Part shown: piece after piece, positions 3,801-29,483 of the stretch | How the letters are laid out: each line of letters begins with the position of its first letter | Position numbering within the stretch: position 1 is the first letter of the stretch | DNA from: a virus | Lineage: Duplodnaviria > Heunggongvirae > Uroviricota > Caudoviricetes | Virus record (IMG/VR): IMGVR_UViG_2728369187_000005 | Strand: one strand, 5' to 3' | Length of the DNA: 43,500 nucleotides | Translations under genes and position numbers: made by a program | The notes under the pieces: model-generated | Databases searched by the model: none | Told to the model about the DNA's origin: nothing | What the model saw: the letters and a program-made list of their open reading frames with translations, nothing else

Positions 3801-4283
3801 AGGTCACCCACCACCACCGATGCTAGATACTGTGAGGTGGTTTTGCCTTTAATGGTGATGTCTTTTTCCGTCACCCAGCCACCATTACGCTGTATCTGAA
3901 CCAGCAGGCGGACTTCCGACGGATTCCGGTCCCCCTTTGAGGTGNNNNNNNNNNNNNNNNNNNNNNNNNNNNNNNNNNNNNNNNNNNNNNNNNNNNNNNN
4001 NNNNNNNNNNNNNNNNNNNNNNNNNNNNNNNNNNNNNNNNNNNNNNNNNNNNNNNNNNNNNNNNNNNNNNNNNNNNNNNNNNNNNNNNNNNNNNNNNNNN
4101 TATATTGGTATTCCCCTCACTGTCCAGCACCGGCGTACTGTTCAGCAGCACGCTTTTTAATCCATCCACCGGACCTTCAACCGGCCCTTCGCTGATGGCA
4201 TCGATCACACTCAGCAGCTGCGTGGACTTCAGGTTGTCCTTCGCTTCGCGCGGGGTATGCCCCTTACTGCTGCCTTTACCCAT
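897..4283 (-). CDS. J: tail tip host-specificity protein J (reading frame interrupted by two assembly gaps)
   Basis: Three ORF segments (897-2003, 2231-4120, 3885-4283) in one orientation; N-terminus [34 protein letters not shown] and internal blocks match lambda J as recalled; total span about 1129 codons. Confidence 0.85.
2263..2332. other. assembly gap (70 N) inside J
   Basis: Run of N. Confidence 0.99.
3945..4100. other. assembly gap (156 N) inside J
   Basis: Run of N. Confidence 0.99.
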
Positions 4284-5702: not shown

Positions 5703-6257
5703 TCAGGCATTTGCTGCATTTATCCTTCGTGATATCGGACNNNNNNNNNNNNNNNNNNNNNNNNNNNNNNNNNNNNNNNNNNNCGTTTCAGTCGGCGTGG
5801 ACAGTACAAAAGAGGCACTGACCGCGCTCAGTTCGCTGCACTGCTCGATGCGCCAGCGGCTGATCACCTCCTGCTCCGGATCGGCTTCGCTGTTTCCGTT
5901 GACGAAGTTCACCGCATCCAGAAAGCGGGCGTAAACCTTACGCCGGACCACCGTTCCGCCGACCAGACTCTGCAGATCTTCCGCCATCCCGGTGATCATG
6001 CCGTGCAGGTTAGAGACCGCCAGTGTCGGACGGGCAGCACTGCCCTTGCCGTTCATCTCAAATCCACTCCCCTGAATGGGATAGGCCTGATACTGCCGAC
6101 TCTGCCAGGTGACAGACTCACCTTTTTCGTTCTGCTCATTACAGAAAAAGTAGCGATCCCCGCCTACCTCGGTCAGGTCGATTTCCCAGAGCACCACGCT
6201 GGCCGACTGCTCCGCACGAATGCATTCATTCAGCGTTTCCTGTTGTATGTCCTGCAT
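5703..6257 (-). CDS. L: tail tip protein L (3' part uncertain because of a 43-N gap; probably continues to about 5630)
   Basis: ORF starting [41 protein letters not shown], lambda-L-like; sits between M and K. Confidence 0.7.
   Translation of the reverse strand: MQDIQQETLNECIRAEQSASVVLWEIDLTEVGGDRYFFCNEQNEKGESVTWQSRQYQAYPIQGSGFEMNGKGSAARPTLAVSNLHGMITGMAEDLQSLVGGTVVRRKVYARFLDAVNFVNGNSEADPEQEVISRWRIEQCSELSAVSASFVLSTPTETXXXXXXXXXXXXXXXPISRRINAANA
5741..5783. other. assembly gap (43 N) inside L
   Basis: Run of N. Confidence 0.99.
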
Positions 6258-15669: not shown

Positions 15670-16785
15670 TTAAATCCCTGCTTTTCTGAATACCTGTGCA
15701 TCACGCTCACGGAGCTGCTTCAGCGTCAGCCATTCGCCTTTATCGGTGTAAAATTCATCTGGCGACATACCACCATCCCGAATCAGCTTTGCTCGGGTTT
15801 CCCCCACAATCTGTTTTTGTCTGGTGTAAGGCTGACGCAAAAACCATTCCCTGTAGGTTGTATCTCCGGCCACCACGCCATCCATGCTGGCCCGCTCAGC
15901 CGGGGAAATATCGCGAACATCAATACCCAGTTCCTTCGCTGATTTCAGAATGAACGTTTCCGTTGAGCGGCAGCAGAAATGAATTTTTCCCGGCCCCTGC
16001 AAATAAGGCACGCTGTGACCTACAGGTTTATTATTCAGCGTATATTTGAGGCGATCCCTGATTCGACATTGTGGCGTAGTACGATTATCAAGCGTTGATA
16101 ACCATTGCTTACCCTTAATCAAATCATTATTCGCGCTGGCAAAACTCTCACGGGCAGTAGCAGCAAGATGTCCAACCGCTGTTTTTGCAATGCTGGCCGC
16201 ATTAGCCCGGCTCATCTGCAATGCACCATCCTGAAATCCCTTACTGACATGTCCCCGAATTTTTCTTGCGATCTGCTCATTGGTATCCCCCAGCAAAAAA
16301 CCCTGACGCACTGTATTTGTTATGCGTCTGAGCCGATCCGCTTCAAGATCTGAGGCCCACTCACTGAGCAGTCGTCCCTGGAATGGTCGCGCCATTGCAG
16401 CGGCATAAAGTGCATCAGGAGAGATACCAACCAGAGGGTGAACATCAGCAACAAAATCAGGTAGCATAGAATCAAACAGACTTAACTGATAACCAGCCTC
16501 ATAAATTGCCAGCTCGTTCAGCTCTCCGGAGAGACTGGTAAACATGCTGTTAATAGCAGTGCGGTTAACCTCTCTGACGCTCGCCAGAAGTGACTCCAGG
16601 CGCTTAACGGTAAAACTACCTGGATCGAGGCTGTCCAGTGCTATCAGCAGGCGAGCAGTAAGTTCCGCATCGCTGTCATTCAGTATTTTCACCATTCTGG
16701 CAGCCACGCCAGTGCTATAGCGGGATATCCAGACTGCATGAGCAATTGATTCATCACGCAGCCGTTCATTCACGGTTTGCATCAT
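15670..16785 (-). CDS. head morphogenesis protein (SPP1 gp7 / Mu F-like minor capsid protein)
   Basis: 371-aa ORF directly downstream of and overlapping the portal gene. Confidence 0.7.
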   Translation of the reverse strand: MMQTVNERLRDESIAHAVWISRYSTGVAARMVKILNDSDAELTARLLIALDSLDPGSFTVKRLESLLASVREVNRTAINSMFTSLSGELNELAIYEAGYQLSLFDSMLPDFVADVHPLVGISPDALYAAAMARPFQGRLLSEWASDLEADRLRRITNTVRQGFLLGDTNEQIARKIRGHVSKGFQDGALQMSRANAASIAKTAVGHLAATARESFASANNDLIKGKQWLSTLDNRTTPQCRIRDRLKYTLNNKPVGHSVPYLQGPGKIHFCCRSTETFILKSAKELGIDVRDISPAERASMDGVVAGDTTYREWFLRQPYTRQKQIVGETRAKLIRDGGMSPDEFYTDKGEWLTLKQLRERDAQVFRKAGI

Positions 16786-18172
16786 TGATTTCCATCAGCA
16801 TTACACTCTGATTTTTTAATTCATCGATCACTTCCTCTGGACGGGAATCCTGATCGATAAATTTCAACGCCTGCAACACCCGAACCGCATCAATCTGACG
16901 TATATCACCGCCCTGACGCAATGACTGAACAGCCAGCGCGGAGGATGAGTCAAACACCTGGGCAGATACATCCAGTTCAGTGCGCACATCCACATTGCCA
17001 CCGCAACTCTCTCCGATCCATTCCGCCATTATCTGGAGAATATTATCGAGGGCATCTTCGAGGGAGTTCGCCATTGTATAAAGCGGCGAGTTTTCCTGCA
17101 TTCGCTCTTCATTAGTCTGATCAACAGATTTGGTGGATGTATTTTCAGCACGCAGAAGTTTAGCGCCGGCATGACGCATCTGATTTTCCAGCTTCTCAAG
17201 TGATGTTTCGCCAGATTCTATCGCTGCGCCACTATGTTCAACATATTCGAGGCCATTTTTTGTTCTGTCCTCAAAAATCGTAGCGGTGGATGCACCAACC
17301 GTCAGTTCTTCATTCCTGTCCAGCCCGTAGGCCACCAGCAATGGAACGCGGGCAACATGAAGAATATTGTCCTGCTCGCTCTGGCTTTGCCAGTGCTTGA
17401 TATTCAGCAAGCCAAGATTAAGCAATGGCGGTGTACCACGCATAAATCCTGTTTTCTTCGTGTACAGTGTTACCAGAGGAATATCATCACGGCTGGTATT
17501 CCATGACTCATGAAGCGTCCAGACAGATTCGCCATTAGTGCCTTCGCTACGTCGATAAATTTCAACTCGACGGGGCATAATATGGCGGATCTGCTCCACC
17601 TTCTTCTGCCCGAAATCATCACCATCAATAATGATGACCTCTTTTATACGCAAATCAGTGAGAACAACTTTCCCTTGTTCAACTTTCGATTTCCATCCAA
17701 TAACCTGGCGTGGATTCAGCATCGTAACGTACGGACGACCACCGGCCGCGTTTTCATCGGCTTTTGTCCGAATCTCTTTCATATCCGTTCGTGGATAGTC
17801 CACCAGCGCATGTGCCACACCATACTGAAATGCGAGGCTGAAAAATTGCTGCGCCCACACATCCAGTCGGCTCCCCTCCATGTCGATATTTTCTGCATAT
17901 TCCCTGATTTTTGCCGGCGTTTCCTCACTCAATACTGTCGGCTCTGCAAATATGCGCCCAATATTTTGCTTGATGCTTTCTTCATACACAGGAAGTAGCG
18001 TAGCCACAGACAGGCGTTTTTTATAAGCGTCTTCATCTTCGTTAGGCCATTTTGGGAGATAATTTTCCCCCTGCCTGCGCATTTCAAGCGTACCGCCCAT
18101 CAGTGCGTCGTTAATATCCCACGCCTCCAGCATATCGTTATAGTCGAGGTTGGGTGTTGATATATCAGCCAT
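16766..18172 (-). CDS. portal protein
   Basis: 468-aa ORF directly after the terminase large subunit. Confidence 0.8.
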   Translation of the reverse strand: MADISTPNLDYNDMLEAWDINDALMGGTLEMRRQGENYLPKWPNEDEDAYKKRLSVATLLPVYEESIKQNIGRIFAEPTVLSEETPAKIREYAENIDMEGSRLDVWAQQFFSLAFQYGVAHALVDYPRTDMKEIRTKADENAAGGRPYVTMLNPRQVIGWKSKVEQGKVVLTDLRIKEVIIIDGDDFGQKKVEQIRHIMPRRVEIYRRSEGTNGESVWTLHESWNTSRDDIPLVTLYTKKTGFMRGTPPLLNLGLLNIKHWQSQSEQDNILHVARVPLLVAYGLDRNEELTVGASTATIFEDRTKNGLEYVEHSGAAIESGETSLEKLENQMRHAGAKLLRAENTSTKSVDQTNEERMQENSPLYTMANSLEDALDNILQIMAEWIGESCGGNVDVRTELDVSAQVFDSSSALAVQSLRQGGDIRQIDAVRVLQALKFIDQDSRPEEVIDELKNQSVMLMEINDANRE

Positions 18173-18174
18173 AA

Positions 18175-19485
18175 TTAAATCCGAAGTGATGTGACTCTTC
18201 CGGTCGGTTTGACAATAGGGAATTGCTTAACGATGAAATAACCTCCGGCATCATTCGGGTGATCATTGCCAGATTTTTTATCAGGCTCCCCCTTCTCATC
18301 CCAGACCTGTTGCTCCAGAGATTCGGCATATAACGGGCAACGCTTCACATTAACTTTATAGCGACGCTCACCATTGGCATTGCAGAACATTGCATTCATT
18401 GAGTTAACGCGATCTTTTACTGGCGGGTTCGAGCTGTTCACCACAACGTTAAAACCAGCCTGCTTAAGCTGGGCTATATCCGTCGTACTTGCGTTACTTG
18501 ATTTTCTGGAATCCCCGGAAGCATCTGGATAAATATAAATTTCCCTCACTTTCCGGTAATCATTCCCATCATACAGCCAGAAGCGTTCTTTAATGATGCG
18601 GATCATATCCGGCGTATCGTAGGCATTGATGATTTCAGTTACCGCACATGGAAGCCCCAAACGCAGCACATGGACGATTCCCGCCATCTTTCCAACGTTA
18701 AAATCCATCCCAATATAAATCGGCTCCCCTGGCTGCTCCACTTCTTCGCAATTATTCAGTTTCCGGTCAAACTGATGGTAAACAGTACCACTTGTCAGGT
18801 TAGTAAACTGTCCTCGAAGATAGGCTTTAATCAGCTCTGGAGGGTATGATTCAAGAAGCGAAGGAATGTAATCTGCTGGCAGGTTCTTTTCATTATCGAA
18901 AGTAGATGCCTGCACCAGACCATACAGTGAGGCCAGCTCTGTTTTTTCACGCACGGCTTTAACAAACTGCTCGTAGACAAATTTGAATCCTTCCGGCGTG
19001 GTTGTAACGTCAATACCGTTGCGAAGTCCATCAATCTTATAACGCATACGTGCAATTATCTTGCGCCACGCCGTTCTGGCTTTTTCCTTCGGCAAAATGT
19101 CCAGTTCATCCACCAACGCATTACCAATTTTGAAACCGACGATCGTTTGTGGCTTCTCCATCGATCTGCAGATAGTGGTTCCCCGATACTGGCGTCCGTA
19201 ATAAAAGTGAACCTCTTTATTTCCCTCATTAATTTTTACGTTCAATCCCCAGTCAGCAGCAACTTCTTCCACTGTAGGGTAAAAAATATCGCGAATTTGG
19301 GGATACGTTGGCGCAAAATATCCCTGATTTATACCTGGATGCTCCCAAATCCCCTTGCATATGCCGCCACACCCAACCCATGTTTTGCCCGAGCCAAAAC
19401 CAGCAATATAGGCTTTAAATTTATGGGGCATTGAAAGAAATCGCGCCTGAGGCACATTAAGCGTCGGAGAGATCATCTTCATCAC
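18175..19485 (-). CDS. terminase large subunit
   Basis: 436-aa ORF with Walker A-like AGFGSGKT near the N-terminus and acidic nuclease-type C-terminal half. Confidence 0.85.
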   Translation of the reverse strand: MMKMISPTLNVPQARFLSMPHKFKAYIAGFGSGKTWVGCGGICKGIWEHPGINQGYFAPTYPQIRDIFYPTVEEVAADWGLNVKINEGNKEVHFYYGRQYRGTTICRSMEKPQTIVGFKIGNALVDELDILPKEKARTAWRKIIARMRYKIDGLRNGIDVTTTPEGFKFVYEQFVKAVREKTELASLYGLVQASTFDNEKNLPADYIPSLLESYPPELIKAYLRGQFTNLTSGTVYHQFDRKLNNCEEVEQPGEPIYIGMDFNVGKMAGIVHVLRLGLPCAVTEIINAYDTPDMIRIIKERFWLYDGNDYRKVREIYIYPDASGDSRKSSNASTTDIAQLKQAGFNVVVNSSNPPVKDRVNSMNAMFCNANGERRYKVNVKRCPLYAESLEQQVWDEKGEPDKKSGNDHPNDAGGYFIVKQFPIVKPTGRVTSLRI

Positions 19486-20551
19486 TCCTTACTCTGGCAT
19501 CAACCACATTAATATTGATCGCCACAGGCTGGGGATGTTCATTATCTTCCACCGTTTCGATCTCTTTGCGCAGCTTCTGGTTTTCCATTCTGCGCCGTTC
19601 AATTTCCAGTTCCTGTAGCCGCTTATCTGCACATAAAGCCCCGCCAGCAGAAAGCAAACGCAACAATTCACGCCGGGCGGCAGCCTTATCCTCCAGCAGG
19701 ATCTCAACGCCGAATTTTCCGAATTTTGCCCCTGCATATAATTGCCGCGCATCCCCATCAAGCAGAGTGGTATCAGCCATATAAAGCTGTCCCGTTCCCT
19801 CACCGCAGCACTTCGGGCAGTCCGGATTGGGTATGGCGTTATCAACAAAGCCGAGGCCTCCATATTCCGGTTCGGGTTTGCCATCTCTGGAAGCCTGCGC
19901 CGCTGCCTTGTCGAATTCTGCTATATCGCGCCACTGGTAGAGATGATTCTCGCCCCAGCAATAACGGCAGTTAACACGGCGAAATTGTGCAAGCTGATTG
20001 GGGTCGGCCAGGACAATGGCCATCAACTGACTCACTAGTAAATCCAGGTCTGCGGAATAGCGTTTCTGGTACTGATTGCGGAAGTAGCTGATAGCGCGAA
20101 AAACCCTGGCATTTCTAAGCATACGACTGGCGTTGCTATTAGCTGTCGCACCTTGCCCCTCATAACCGGCTAGTCGGTACGCCTCTGTCGGCTTTTTACC
20201 CTGAGCAACAAGCATCGCAAACTTAGCCTGCTGGTCAGAAATGCCGAATTCATCGGGACAGAACGAAAATTCCTCCGCGTCGCCCTCATTCAGGCCCGCA
20301 TCGAATACTGGCTTTTTTTCCTGAGATTTTTCGTTCCGCTTTTGTGCAGTCTGCGCAGATTTTTTCTGCGCACTTTTTTGCGCAGTTTTGCACATTTCTG
20401 TCTGCGCATTTTTCGGAGTTTTTTTGATGTAACGACGGGCTGTTGCGTAATTCAGTCCCCTTGCTTCACACCATGCCACCGGAGATATACCGGAGCGGGT
20501 GTATTCAGCAATATACTCCTGCTGCAACGCCCCCCAGTCCGGTCTGCTCAT
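19457..20551 (-). CDS. putative terminase small subunit / DNA packaging protein
   Basis: 364-aa ORF overlapping the terminase large gene start; N-terminal HTH-like segment, Lys/Gln-rich linker, Cys-x2-Cys...Cys-x2-Cys-Cys cluster. Confidence 0.55.
   Translation of the reverse strand: MSRPDWGALQQEYIAEYTRSGISPVAWCEARGLNYATARRYIKKTPKNAQTEMCKTAQKSAQKKSAQTAQKRNEKSQEKKPVFDAGLNEGDAEEFSFCPDEFGISDQQAKFAMLVAQGKKPTEAYRLAGYEGQGATANSNASRMLRNARVFRAISYFRNQYQKRYSADLDLLVSQLMAIVLADPNQLAQFRRVNCRYCWGENHLYQWRDIAEFDKAAAQASRDGKPEPEYGGLGFVDNAIPNPDCPKCCGEGTGQLYMADTTLLDGDARQLYAGAKFGKFGVEILLEDKAAARRELLRLLSAGGALCADKRLQELEIERRRMENQKLRKEIETVEDNEHPQPVAININVVDARVRSDEDDLSDA
20351..20417. repeat. five imperfect tandem CTGCGCA-N-T(4-6) repeats inside the terminase small subunit gene (candidate pac-associated element)
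   Basis: ctgcgcagatttttt / ctgcgcactttttt / gcgcagtttt / gcacatttctg / ctgcgcatttttcgg. Confidence 0.4.
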
Positions 20552-20554
20552 CAG

Positions 20555-20806
20555 TTAGTCCTGATTTTTATCCACCCTGAGTAGTTCGCGCAGAGCAAAG
20601 GCATCCCCTTTTCTGGCAAGCTTAAACAATGCCGCTCGTAACTCGGCTTCACCTTTCGCTCTGCCCTTACGGATGGCCGCATAAAAATCTGTCATTGCTT
20701 CCCGATTTTCTTTCAGTCGGTTCAGATCAACATCCAGAACGTCAGCGATTTGTTGTGCAGTCATCCGGCACGCTGCCAGAGACTCGACTTTCGAATACGG
20801 AATCAT
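20555..20806 (-). CDS. small HTH-like protein of unknown function
   Basis: 83-aa ORF; stop 3 nt before the terminase small subunit start; overlaps the upstream gene by 65 nt. Confidence 0.5.
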   Translation of the reverse strand: MIPYSKVESLAACRMTAQQIADVLDVDLNRLKENREAMTDFYAAIRKGRAKGEAELRAALFKLARKGDAFALRELLRVDKNQD

Positions 20807-21674
20807 TTGTCACCCCCATTGATATGCAGGGTGTCTTCTTCCTGTATTTTTCGTGAAGGATTTTTACTGCAGCGTTGTTCCAGGTGACCTGATGGTGAAT
20901 GCGTTTATGGCTGGCACCCATCAGTGAGATTTTTACGCACGACGGCGCATACATGACGGAGTAAAAACTTTTAACGTAGGTTCCGGAATCCAGATACAGC
21001 TCGGTCATTCCGCCGCTGTTTTTCTGCGTCTGTTTCTGCCCTAACTGGACAGCACCGATCGTCATAAACAATTCACCACAGCGACCGAGATTCGTGTACG
21101 TATTCACATCCTCGTTAATGCGCCCCATGAATGAGAACGGTCGATCAACCGAACAGATAAAGCTGTTCATTGCCTTGCGTTTCACCCACGAAGCATGGCC
21201 GCCATTGTCACCAAGAAAATCCCCGCCCTGCGACATAGCGATGGAAAGAGCAGGTATTGATTCGTAGTACGCCAGCATTTCAGAAAGGATCGCATCCAGT
21301 TTCCTTATCGGAAAATAGGCCTGGTCATAGTTGCGATCCACCCGAAACTGGAACTCGTGATAATCATCATCGAGCTGAATGAAGTATTTACACCCGACCA
21401 GTTTTGCCAGGTCGAAACAGGCATTACGGGCGTAAAAAATTGAGCGGCGGTCACAGAAATTATCGGCTTCGTCAAAACGACTGGCGATATCGGCTTTGGA
21501 AAACACCAGCACCTGTTCACCAAATTCAGCCATGTACTGATGCCGTGTCTTATCTTCATCATCAACAACGATAAAAATTTTCCCGGTATAGCCAGCACGA
21601 CGCAACGTCCGGTAAGTCAGAACTTTGTCCGGTCGCCCGTGAGTCAGAATAAAGGCGCAAAAATCATCACGCAT
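20742..21674 (-). CDS. hypothetical protein with GT-A-like DxD motif pattern (K-12 ydaY-like region)
   Basis: Start MRDDFCAF at 21674, overlapping the upstream stop within ATGCGTGA and preceded by GGAGGAGGAGGAA; motif series FILTHGRP ... IFIVVDDED ... FIQLDDDY. Confidence 0.6.
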   Translation of the reverse strand: MRDDFCAFILTHGRPDKVLTYRTLRRAGYTGKIFIVVDDEDKTRHQYMAEFGEQVLVFSKADIASRFDEADNFCDRRSIFYARNACFDLAKLVGCKYFIQLDDDYHEFQFRVDRNYDQAYFPIRKLDAILSEMLAYYESIPALSIAMSQGGDFLGDNGGHASWVKRKAMNSFICSVDRPFSFMGRINEDVNTYTNLGRCGELFMTIGAVQLGQKQTQKNSGGMTELYLDSGTYVKSFYSVMYAPSCVKISLMGASHKRIHHQVTWNNAAVKILHEKYRKKTPCISMGVTNDSVFESRVSGSVPDDCTTNR

Positions 21675-22458
21675 ATTCCTCCTCCTCACCACCATGCATG
21701 ATCTCCACCATGCGCTGCGTCATCCGGACAAATCCATTTTCAATAGCCTGCTGATAATCAATGATCACCAGCGCCGACTCCTCGAAAAAACACTGAATTT
21801 CAGAGGGGGCGTGAGCGTAATAGTCCGCAATTCTGCTGAAATTAAACACCGTGTGACGTTCTGCCGCACACAGGAGGAATTTCTCAATATCAGGCTCAAG
21901 GGACGCCGAACGTATCCGGCTGATCAGCTCCTGAGTTTTCGTATCGTCGTACAGTTCACTGATATCCGGTTTACCGCCCGACGGCTCATAAACAGGCGTA
22001 TCAATTTTCGTCGTATACGGCTCCTCCTCATTTCCTGTACCGGGCAAAACATCCGTCAACAGTTCATCAATTTCTGTCGGGATGAAGCCTGTCAGGGAGA
22101 CATCAAAATCAGCATTGATTAGGTCCGACAGCTCCATCCGCAACAGATCTTCATCCCAGCCAGCATTCATCGGCAGGCGATTATCTGCCAGGCGGTACGC
22201 CTTTTTCTGCTCATCCGTCAGGCCAGACAGAACAATGACCGGAACAGAATCCATTTTGAGCATTTCAGCCGCCATAACACGACCGTGACCCGCAATAATT
22301 TCGCCCTTTTCGTCAATCAGCACCGGATTAGTCCAGCCGAATTGCTTAATACTTTCTACCAGTTGTGCCACCTGCTCAGTACTGTGCGTCCTGGCGTTGT
22401 GCGCATACGGTGACAATTCTTGTAATGGGCGATAGACTATCTTTAATTTCTCGCTCAT
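21667..22458 (-). CDS. ynaK: ParB-like nuclease domain protein
   Basis: N-terminal ParB/Srx-type motif block IVYRPLQELSPYAHNARTHS ... NPVLIDEKGEIIAGHGRVMAA; 263 aa; acidic C-terminal tail. Confidence 0.8.
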   Translation of the reverse strand: MSEKLKIVYRPLQELSPYAHNARTHSTEQVAQLVESIKQFGWTNPVLIDEKGEIIAGHGRVMAAEMLKMDSVPVIVLSGLTDEQKKAYRLADNRLPMNAGWDEDLLRMELSDLINADFDVSLTGFIPTEIDELLTDVLPGTGNEEEPYTTKIDTPVYEPSGGKPDISELYDDTKTQELISRIRSASLEPDIEKFLLCAAERHTVFNFSRIADYYAHAPSEIQCFFEESALVIIDYQQAIENGFVRMTQRMVEIMHGGEEEEYA

Positions 22459-22595
22459 ACAGCCTTGCTTTATGAATAAAACGCACCCCAGCAGCCAGTG
22501 CTACTGGGGACGGAGGTGTTGCTGGTAAAGTTAGGTATTGGATCAATGAGTGAGTCAACATAATATTAAACTCACAATTATAAATCAGCCATATA

Positions 22596-24053
22596 TTAGG
22601 AGCGCCAAAAAAAACCTGAAAACAATATAATAACAGGATAAATTTCAAGGCGACCAAGAATCATAGCTATGCACATTAAACATTTTGCAATGTCATTAAG
22701 CACTCCGAATGACGATGCAGTAGCCCCAAAACCTAATCCCATATTATTAATACATGCAGCCACTGTTGCAAATGATGTAAGAAAATCATATCCCATACCA
22801 TTTAACACCAGTATAAAAAACACCGTGAAGAGAGTATAAAGAAAAAAGAAACTCCATACAGACCTCATTACACGATCTGTAACTATCTTCCCTCCTACAT
22901 TTACACTCAACAACGCTCTGGGATGAGAAAGCTGATTTATCTCGTGTTTGCTTTGTTTGAAAAGTATAAGAAATCGAAGTGACTTAATTCCACCACAAGT
23001 TGAACCTATACATCCCCCAAAGAAACTTGACAACAGCAAAAACACTATCGTGTGCGTGGGCCAACTTGCATAATCCTGCGTAGCTAAACCATTATCAGTG
23101 AGCATGGAGCTGGCAAGAAAAAACGAATGAATAAAACTTCCATGCAAGTCATACATACCTATATGCCAGACCTGGAAAGAGGTAACAATGATCACCCCTA
23201 AGGCTATTAACAGAAAGAAACGAAGTTCAATATCTCTGATTAAAGGTTTTATCGTTTTCCTGCTAATAACAATATACCAAAGAGTGAAGTTGAAAGCCGA
23301 TAGCAGGGAAAAAGAACCAGCCACCAGCTCAACCAAATAGTTATTAAAATATCCGATACTCTCGCTATGAGTTGAGAAACCACCAAGCGAAACTGTGGAA
23401 ATCCCGTGACAAATAGCATCAAACAAAGGCATTCCTGCAAGTCTATAACAGACAATACAAGCAATACCTAATAAAGAATAAGTTATCCACAGTGTCCGTG
23501 ACGTATCGGCCAGGCGGGGAGTGAGTTTGTCATCCTTAAATGGCCCCGGCATTTCTGACTGATAAAGCTTTGCACCACCAATACCCAATAATGGCAATAC
23601 AGCAACCGCCAGAACAATAACTCCTAAACCACCTATAAAATTTAACTGTGACCGATAGTACAAATATGCCCGAGGTAATGAACTAACATCATCAATTACA
23701 GTTGCTCCTGTTGTTGTTATTCCAGAAACCCCTTCAAACAGAGCATCAATGAACGTTAAATTAAGTTCTGAGTCAATCCATAAAGGGAATGCACTAATAA
23801 CAGAAAACAAAATCCAAAACATTACAATTATAATAAACCCATCACGGGTACGTAATTGAATGCCAGATTTCTTAGTTGTATACCACGCTCCGCCACCAAT
23901 GCAAAAAAATATAACGAAAGTTATAAAGAAAACGAACAGGCTTTTTTCTTTATAAAACAATGCTACAACCATTGGTGGCAACATTGAAAGACTATAGAGC
24001 CAAACCAGGAACCCACACATATGAGTAACAACTCTTACATGAGATGTATTCAT
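22596..24053 (-). CDS. trkG: Trk-family K+ uptake transporter
   Basis: Polytopic membrane ORF with N-terminus MNTSHVRVVTHMCGFLVWLYSLSML as recalled for K-12 TrkG; AT-rich codon usage typical of a moron. Confidence 0.9.
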   Translation of the reverse strand: MNTSHVRVVTHMCGFLVWLYSLSMLPPMVVALFYKEKSLFVFFITFVIFFCIGGGAWYTTKKSGIQLRTRDGFIIIVMFWILFSVISAFPLWIDSELNLTFIDALFEGVSGITTTGATVIDDVSSLPRAYLYYRSQLNFIGGLGVIVLAVAVLPLLGIGGAKLYQSEMPGPFKDDKLTPRLADTSRTLWITYSLLGIACIVCYRLAGMPLFDAICHGISTVSLGGFSTHSESIGYFNNYLVELVAGSFSLLSAFNFTLWYIVISRKTIKPLIRDIELRFFLLIALGVIIVTSFQVWHIGMYDLHGSFIHSFFLASSMLTDNGLATQDYASWPTHTIVFLLLSSFFGGCIGSTCGGIKSLRFLILFKQSKHEINQLSHPRALLSVNVGGKIVTDRVMRSVWSFFFLYTLFTVFFILVLNGMGYDFLTSFATVAACINNMGLGFGATASSFGVLNDIAKCLMCIAMILGRLEIYPVIILFSGFFWRS

Positions 24054-29410: not shown

Positions 29411-29483
29411 NNNNNNNNNNNNNNNNNNNNNNNNNNNNNNNNNNNNNNNNNNNNNNNNNNNNNNNNNNNNNNNNNNNNNNNNN
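29411..29483. other. assembly gap (73 N) in non-coding region
   Basis: Run of N. Confidence 0.99.

Follow-up and report, generated by a model that had tools for sequence, protein, structure and literature searches.

A hexamer array within the small terminase gene of a Rac-type prophage is a candidate P1-like packaging initiation site

Introduction

Where does DNA packaging begin in a Rac-type prophage, and how is the starting point recognized? The question is raised by a short array of repeats at positions 20343-20408 in a stretch of 43,500 nucleotides from a tailed virus (IMG/VR record IMGVR_UViG_2728369187_000005), the whole of which is referred to here as the window. The repeats lie on the minus strand within terS, the gene for the small terminase subunit (TerS). 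A preliminary description of the DNA had proposed, by analogy with other phages, that they form a packaging initiation (pac) site. Our analysis supports this proposal on computational grounds, and all of the comparative tests that we ran agree with it. We conclude that the array probably serves for terminase recognition within the pac site of an intact lambdoid prophage of the Rac type, because the repeats are under selection as DNA, are conserved in more than one reading frame, are linked to a particular helix-turn-helix (HTH) domain that probably shares ancestry with P1 PacA, and accompany a large terminase (TerL) whose nearest characterized relatives are reported to package by the headful mechanism.

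The repeat is a palindromic hexamer present in six copies

The gene and the array are as follows.

19457..20551, minus strand: terS, small terminase, 364 residues (PHROG 51, E = 6e-76; Pfam Terminase_2)
20343..20408, minus strand: hexamer array, candidate pac recognition site (six TGCGCA-type sites, four exact and two with one mismatch)
20352-57, 20367-72, 20379-84 and 20403-08, minus strand: exact TGCGCA, from the sequence
20343-48 and 20389-94, minus strand: TGCGCA copies with one mismatch, from the sequence

Inspection of 20351-20417 located the repeats where they had first been reported. On the plus strand, CTGCGCA followed by a run of T is found at 20351, 20366 and 20402; the unit at 20379 is (T)GCGCA, and that at 20389 is a degenerate GCACA. 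Read on the coding (minus) strand, the repeat is a TGCGCA palindrome with a run of A after it. The repeats are therefore real, but the unit of 10–15 bp in the preliminary description is better given as a 6-bp palindrome with variable A-rich spacers of 3–9 bp, and the extent of 20351-20417, which was right in location, should be changed to 20343-20408, the sixth site lying 3 bp beyond the start that had been given. The repeats do encode, as was described, a linker rich in lysine, alanine and glutamine (K/A/Q) in a small terminase of 364 residues, which is assigned by PHROG 51 and by Pfam Terminase_2 (PF03592; 35.6 bits over residues 122–321, above the gathering cutoff of 26.1). The six sites are at terS nucleotides 144, 158, 168, 180, 195 and 204, and are thus 9–15 bp apart, with A-rich spacers on the coding strand. 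In close relatives both of the mismatched sites are exact TGCGCA, and we therefore regard six sites as the canonical array.

The frequency of TGCGCA over the whole window is not significant (20 seen, 17.65 expected), but its clustering is beyond chance. Four copies occur within 57 bp, and none of 300 first-order Markov simulations reached four copies in 60 bp. TGCGCA is the only hexamer in the window with four copies in 60 bp, and the array is the sole such cluster in the 43.5 kb. Tandem Repeats Finder detects the array weakly, with scores of 46 at period 15 and 42 at period 12. A role in methylation, suggested by the GCGC core, was considered and dropped, since a sister clade has TGCGAA and the prophage has no annotated methyltransferase.

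Domain structure of TerS

The analysis of sequence and predicted structure divides TerS into three parts.

20420..20551, minus strand: N-terminal PacA-like HTH, residues 1–44 (AlphaFold model; hhalign against P1 PacA)
20435-20437, minus strand: codon of Arg39, the co-varying residue (comparison of residues and hexamers)
20258..20419, minus strand: K/A/Q-rich linker, residues 45–98, predicted to be disordered, with the array in its first half (AlphaFold predicted local distance difference test, pLDDT)
19457..20257, minus strand: Terminase_2-type body, residues 99–364 plus stop (Pfam PF03592)

TerS thus appears to be a chimera, in which a PacA-like three-helix HTH is joined by a disordered tether of about 50 residues to a Terminase_2 body. 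In the AlphaFold model the helices of the N-terminal domain are at residues 6–20, 24–31 and 35–38 (pLDDT 74–84), and within the linker the pLDDT is below 50 for residues 48–80 and 82–94. A disordered tether would be under few structural constraints and could accommodate a DNA signal.

Alignment of the family profile with PacA 1–64 using hhalign places PacA residues 3–40 in register over 38 columns (90.5% probability, E = 1.4e-6); a pairwise BLASTP comparison of the N-terminal HTH with PacA is weak (E = 0.044). The N-terminal HTH is thus probably homologous to that of P1 PacA, an assignment of moderate strength. Pfam searches with the isolated N-terminal 66–80 residues gave only sub-threshold matches (HTH_Tnp_1, HTH_29 for the Klebsiella sequence).

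The body contains its own canonical HTH (residues ~105–160), with pLDDT of 84–93 for residues 101–160. The top Foldseek matches of a 160-residue model were the DNA-binding domain of SF6 TerS (4zc3 and 2cmp, probability 0.99, template modelling score 0.74 on the target), all matches having E > 0.7. The fold match probably concerns this second HTH, and it is therefore uninformative about the N-terminal domain. A sequence search of the PDB with TerS gave only a marginal match of the body to Pam5 TerS (E = 0.15). The body also contains the motifs CRYC (residues 195–198) and CPKCC (residues 245–249), about 50 residues apart (window 19808-19969, minus strand), a pair suggestive of an insert of the zinc-ribbon kind within this Terminase_2 protein.

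The array accompanies the N-terminal HTH

We examined the occurrence of the array among relatives in two ways. Scanning viral contigs twice at the protein level yielded 160 loci. The HTH and array together are attached to at least three kinds of TerS body, of 235, ~324–335 and 364 residues, and the array is absent from homologous bodies that have no N-terminal module (F116, PEp14 and Bcep22), whose N-termini are K/R-rich. A scan of 2.9 million viral contigs using the motif alone (TGCGCA N3-10 TGCGCA N3-10 TGCGCA) found at least 120 loci. Among the matches listed, at least 77 of the 120 lie directly downstream of the HTH, some of these HTHs being only ~40% identical, and most of the others are unrelated peptide or tandem repeats. 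A search of protein databases returned mostly fragments and was used solely to seed the structure alignment. The motif scan, the variety of bodies and the lack of arrays in bodies without the module together show, at the level of sequence, that the array is a property of the N-terminal HTH module.

The type of hexamer also varies with the HTH. In relatives from Yersinia, Providencia and other hosts, the position of the array is occupied by TGCGAA(T), often as the palindrome TGCGAATTCGCA. In a sample partly selected for the presence of TGCGCA, Arg39 is found with TGCGCA (97 distinct sequences, with a mean of 5.5 copies and 0.03 of the other type) and Lys39 with TGCGAA/TTCGCA (72 sequences, with a mean of 5.4 copies and 0.19 of the other type). 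Sequences reading STARRYIK(I/L) carry TGCGCA, indicating that residue 39 matters and residue 44 does not. On a neighbour-joining tree of the remaining domain the R/K state switches about 15 times, and some pairs are identical in residues 1–35 yet differ in both helix and array. This pattern fits a cassette composed of helix and site.

A number of individual loci deserve description. Klebsiella-type genes (L001, L004 and L069-L075) have a second cluster of three TGCGCA at terS nucleotides ~348–403, in frames 2, 2 and 1. It is ~150–200 bp downstream of the main array, within the part encoding the Terminase_2 HTH, and the two clusters recall the HEX4/HEX3 layout of P1; the lineage of the window has no such second cluster. 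Four unrelated viral contigs (L286, L241, L258 and L287) encode TerS-like N-termini with three TGCGCA right after the HTH. L286, a contig of 42% GC with its array at 2306-2336, reads '...FGVSDNTVKKICNENAQIAQKCAEKRE', and in L241 and L258 the N-termini read 'DWE..E.DY..G..SLR.IA', with sites near residue 65. The logic of HTH plus array may therefore be present in other terminase lineages. Two E. coli proteins (P0045 and P0046) combine a window-type TerS body with a different N-terminal module ('MARTNWGEELSRFANEWRQTGIKPKEWSDREGHSWGTAKNHITIK...GKIANS...QKIANLQ'), and are, as judged from the proteins alone, an example of a swap of the HTH-plus-linker module. In Escherichia phage Rac-SA53 (L007 2851-3879), which carries the LT-IIa toxin, terS is annotated as a 'fusion of two genes by deletion'. 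This gene has no N-terminal HTH, and all that is left of its array is two TGCGCA at nucleotides 95 and 105.

Comparison with the P1 pac site

The P1 pac site is a region of 161 bp inside pacA, with seven TGATCA/G hexamers arranged as HEX4 and HEX3 around a site for integration host factor (IHF) and the cleavage point. In the annotated P1 genome the hexamers are at pacA nucleotides 194–233 and 324–380, in two frames and just after the HTH, the cleavage sites are at nucleotides 276–284 and the IHF site at 256–268. The site is defined by its hexamers, on which efficient packaging depends and whose synonymous destruction reduces the titre about 9-fold (PMC10028697).

The arrangement in the window parallels that of pacA and pac in several features of sequence. 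Both have palindromic TG-NN-CA hexamers clustered in the 5′ part of the small terminase gene, at distances of 7–16 bp and in more than one reading frame, each gene having several copies of its hexamer. In both, the array is just downstream of the part encoding the N-terminal HTH, which ends T-A-R-R-Y-(I/L), and the hexamers persist although the linker peptide changes, with a similar outcome of the recoding test described below. TGATCA, TGCGCA and TGCGAA share the form TG-NN-(C/A)A.

There are also clear differences. Neither TGCGCA nor TGCGAA contains GATC, and we therefore expect no control of the window array by Dam. The window has one cluster of six sites, with no second hexamer cluster within terS ±450 nucleotides, where P1 has 4 + 3 sites around the cut, and no IHF consensus is found nearer than 3 kb to the array. 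The body of TerS is of the Terminase_2 type and is not PacA-like beyond the HTH, and comparison of TerL with PacB gave no significant BLASTP alignment (best E = 0.82). We predict that the array is a P1-like hexamer-array pac site, carried within the gene of a chimeric TerS.

It might be that the array is bound by some other protein, or that TerS uses it to regulate its own operon rather than packaging. Candidates for another binder are the Terminase_2 HTH, the product of an open reading frame (ORF) of 83 codons described below, and a host or phage regulator. The second HTH is well modelled and resembles the DNA-binding domain of SF6 TerS, the 83-residue ORF has TerS-like PHROG similarity and is immediately upstream, and the single cluster and lack of an IHF site are unlike P1. 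We nevertheless consider such a role improbable, since the array goes with the N-terminal module in three kinds of body and is absent without it, the type of hexamer tracks a residue of the N-terminal HTH, and the homologous arrangement in P1 is a packaging site.

Selection on the hexamers

The number of hexamers was compared with that expected from the linker peptide by means of a recoding test, in which the peptide was held fixed, codons were redrawn according to the phage's own usage, and TGCGCA was counted. For the linker of the window, 0.45 copies are expected and four are observed (P = 4e-4). Eight relatives have 4–8 copies against 0.3–1.0 expected (P <= 5e-5). The experimentally validated pac site of P1 carries the same signature, with eight hexamers against 2.5 expected (P = 2e-4), as does the corresponding region of Cronobacter phage JK004 (P = 1e-4), whose PacA is 70% identical to that of P1 and in which the linker peptide has diverged while six hexamers remain at the same positions.

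The hexamers are also conserved across reading frames. The terS genes of Klebsiella phages, encoding proteins ~40% identical, have 5–6 TGCGCA in the same place; the translations T-A-Q, L-R-T and K-C-A show that the sites occupy all three frames. Over 126 distinct terS 5′ ends the counts of TGCGCA in the three frames are 227/49/10. The linker peptide and the spacer lengths vary strongly between lineages, and the hexamer stays exact. We conclude from the excess over recoded sequences and the conservation in several frames, together with the location in a disordered tether, that selection acts on the hexamers as DNA and that they do not simply follow from the peptide. Three loci (L064, P0033 and P0084) have frameshifted, truncated terS genes, in which the array is read in another frame (…KCAERNAQNCAKKCAKKNCADCAK…); in these decayed copies the hexamers are still intact.

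Selection on DNA could also reflect nucleic acid structure, if the hexamers formed hairpins in mRNA or single-stranded DNA that tune translation or mRNA stability, or formed cruciforms. The window segment has a folding energy of −29.8 kcal/mol compared to −16.4 for shuffled sequences (z = −5.0), the Klebsiella-type array of L001 has z = −4.2, and R-type arrays have a mean z of −3.85. Stable folding is, however, automatic for an array that repeats a self-complementary hexamer. TGCGAA is not self-complementary, and arrays of the TGCGAA clade with 0–1 inverted copies fold like shuffled sequences (Yersinia z = −0.33; group means 0.09 and −1.6) and yet four direct copies are kept. A structural role does not predict the link with residue 39 of the HTH, and no Rfam match was found for the array. 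We therefore think it quite unlikely that structure is the basis of the conservation.

Two further explanations have little to recommend them. The repeats could have arisen by slippage or duplication as a by-product of a low-complexity linker (x-Ala-Gln-Lys), with no function as DNA: the region is K/A/Q-rich and predicted to be disordered, most sites read Ala-Gln (frame 2, 227/286), and Tandem Repeats Finder detects short tandem units. This explanation is largely refuted by the recoding results for the window and its relatives, by the retention of the hexamer in the other two frames as (L/M/V)-R and C-A, by its exactness while spacers and peptides vary, and by the K/R-rich but array-free N-termini of bodies without the N-terminal HTH, and we regard it as very unlikely. 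Equally unlikely is that the hexamers are short patches of homology for recombination that shuffles HTH modules among TerS bodies, with no role in recognition; the array does lie at the boundary between an exchangeable N-terminal module and differing bodies, and the interspersed R and K helix types on the tree imply frequent recombination, but such patches would not need 4–8 exact copies, do not predict that a helix residue should go with one of two exclusive types of hexamer, and leave the parallel with the functional hexamers of P1 unexplained.

Proposed mechanism

We propose that, within a TerS oligomer, a number of HTHs on flexible tethers would each bind one hexamer, and specificity would thus depend on how many sites there are rather than on a single long one. 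The complex of TerS with the array would recruit TerL, and TerL, as nuclease and ATPase, would cut near the array. Headful packaging would proceed from the cut, probably toward terL and the portal gene. We infer each of these elements, namely the binding of hexamers by the HTH, the TerS oligomer, the position of the cut, the direction of packaging and the headful mode. Our more general suggestion, which we consider possible but rather less than an even bet, is that the PacA-type HTH and the downstream array form a portable 'reader plus address' cassette, which moves between unrelated TerS bodies and takes packaging specificity with it, under a repeatedly switched code of one residue and one base (Arg39 with TGCGCA, Lys39 with TGCGAA).

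Several observations weigh against a packaging site of this kind, or against parts of the proposed code. Two of the six sites are mutated in the window itself, and the segment folds stably, as noted above. Within the Rac lineage, the fraction of minor alleles is 0.039 at hexamers and 0.053 at spacers, a marginal difference (29 distinct 5′ ends); with so little diversity the two classes of position cannot be told apart, and we have therefore excluded this footprint from the evidence. The homology to PacA is an alignment of 38 residues to a single-sequence template. The codon in the helix is less than 30 bp from the first hexamer, and the co-variation could therefore be physical linkage rather than co-adaptation. 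The third helix is short in the AlphaFold model (residues 35–38), which places Arg39 at its end. The distant HTH of L286 has Lys-Lys at the positions of Arg-Arg in the family and yet is followed by TGCGCA, so that the R/K rule is not universal, and P1 has Arg-Arg with TGATCA. In the literature we found no virion ends, footprints or transduction data for this family, and searches on TGCGCA with pac, on related named phages and on packaging of Rac prophages gave nothing on this site.

TerL and comparison with other packaging systems

The large terminase is encoded next to terS.

18175..19485, minus strand: TerL, large terminase, 436 residues (Pfam Terminase_6N and 6C)

TerL is 40–51% identical to the TerL proteins of Jerseyvirus, Kagunavirus and Dhillonvirus. 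Jerseyviruses are reported, from PhageTerm, pulsed-field gel electrophoresis and restriction analysis, to package by the headful mechanism with pac initiation (PMC10783031, PMC9409062), and a published tree places Jerseyvirus TerL near that of P1 (PMC10783031). That the nearest characterized relatives of TerL are headful packagers gives indirect support to a pac mechanism for the phage in the window. A sequence search of the PDB with TerL found no solved relative. The ends of IMG/VR contigs reflect the boundaries of assembly or prophage prediction, and were not used as evidence for termini.

The candidate site can be compared to those of other well-studied phages. In SPP1 and SF6, TerS (G1P) binds the pacL and pacR boxes at the 5′ end of gene 1. 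The window resembles this arrangement in having repeated short elements, here predicted to bind TerS, in DNA rich in A-tracts at the start of terS. As in SF6, the body of TerS belongs to Terminase_2, and its modelled HTH probably accounts for the fold match to the DNA-binding domain of G1P (4zc3/2cmp). The SPP1 boxes are of other sequence and lie partly upstream of the gene. The array in the window differs further in being associated with an extra N-terminal HTH, which G1P lacks.

P22 and Sf6 are, like the window, enterobacterial temperate phages; they are headful packagers with pac inside the terS coding sequence, which is where our candidate is located. Their pac is a single, asymmetric and non-repeated site of ~22 bp in the middle of terS (with a 17-nucleotide consensus in P22), and their TerS is unrelated to that of the window. 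Mutagenesis of wobble positions has been found to work as a test of pac in P22 (PMC11260489).

In lambda, cosB contains the elements R1–R3, which are bound by the winged HTH of gpNu1, together with IHF. The likeness is that several elements for a TerS HTH, predicted ones in the case of the window, are located at or in the 5′ region of terS, where in lambda cooperative binding anchors the terminase. Lambda differs in being a cos system, with R elements of 16 bp and a lambda-type TerL; the TerL of the window resembles that of reported headful packagers, and no IHF site was found.

Prophage context

Its gene content identifies the window as a lambdoid E. coli prophage of the Rac type. The annotation by the Prokaryotic Genome Annotation Pipeline (PGAP) of a copy with 100% identity to window 18000-23000 includes racR, ydaS/T, recE/T, kilR, sieB, xisR/intR, trkG and ynaK, as well as a complete head and tail module. 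The region around the array is present in 1650 of 5426 complete E. coli genomes, and strains GN06156 and MS 69-1 are among those that match the window exactly across the 5 kb compared. The genes run in the order terS, terL, portal, and the remaining features in the neighbourhood of the array are as follows.

16766..18172, minus strand: portal protein, 468 residues, packaging/head module (PHROG 145 portal, E = 3e-165; Pfam DUF4055)
20555-20806, minus strand: ORF of 83 residues (PHROG 309 'terminase small subunit', profile positions 145–218 of 319, E = 8e-23)
20742-21695 and 21667-22458, minus strand: TET-associated glycosyltransferase (TAGT) and ParB/Srx-domain protein, between trkG and terS

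The ORF of 83 residues overlaps the TAGT gene at the 3′ end of the latter and stops 4 nucleotides ahead of the start of terS. It has no Pfam match, and its product may be a small DNA-binding protein that acts as a second partner of the terminase. The TAGT assignment comes from Pfam (E = 4e-35); PGAP names the protein 'GREB1-related protein'. Neither a TET/JBP oxygenase nor a DNA methyltransferase is annotated in the prophage. YnaK in the window is a full-length protein of 263 residues with a ParB/Srx N-terminal domain.

A prophage copy in E. coli LSC52 (L168 18325-19538) is near-identical otherwise, but ISEc31 splits its portal gene and gpJ is frameshifted, unlike the window, in which the portal ORF is intact (468 residues). 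Copies of this prophage therefore differ in whether particles could still be produced. In the LSC52 copy ynaK is annotated as an incomplete pseudogene, with the C-terminus missing. The window contains four runs of N (2263-2332, 3945-4100, 5741-5783 and 29411-29483), three of which are in the tail gene region; the array is unaffected.

Significance

The pac site has been experimentally defined in only a handful of phages, and that of ES18, for example, is still unknown (PMC11260489). The array described here is a concrete prediction of pac for a very common prophage family, and provides a mechanistic tie to the classic P1 system. It suggests that packaging specificity is set by a short cassette of HTH plus array. 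Knowledge of the site and its orientation would predict which chromosomal flank of Rac can be mobilized by lateral transduction, and a packaging signal as compact as ~70 bp would be of use in phagemid design, as has already been done with P1 pac.

If the cassette interpretation is true, pac specificity, and hence the starting points of lateral transduction, would be readable from the sequence for Rac-type prophages, which are present in ~30% of E. coli genomes. The same reading would extend to many prophages of Klebsiella, Yersinia, Serratia and Providencia, and packaging specificity would be re-programmable by a swap of the cassette.

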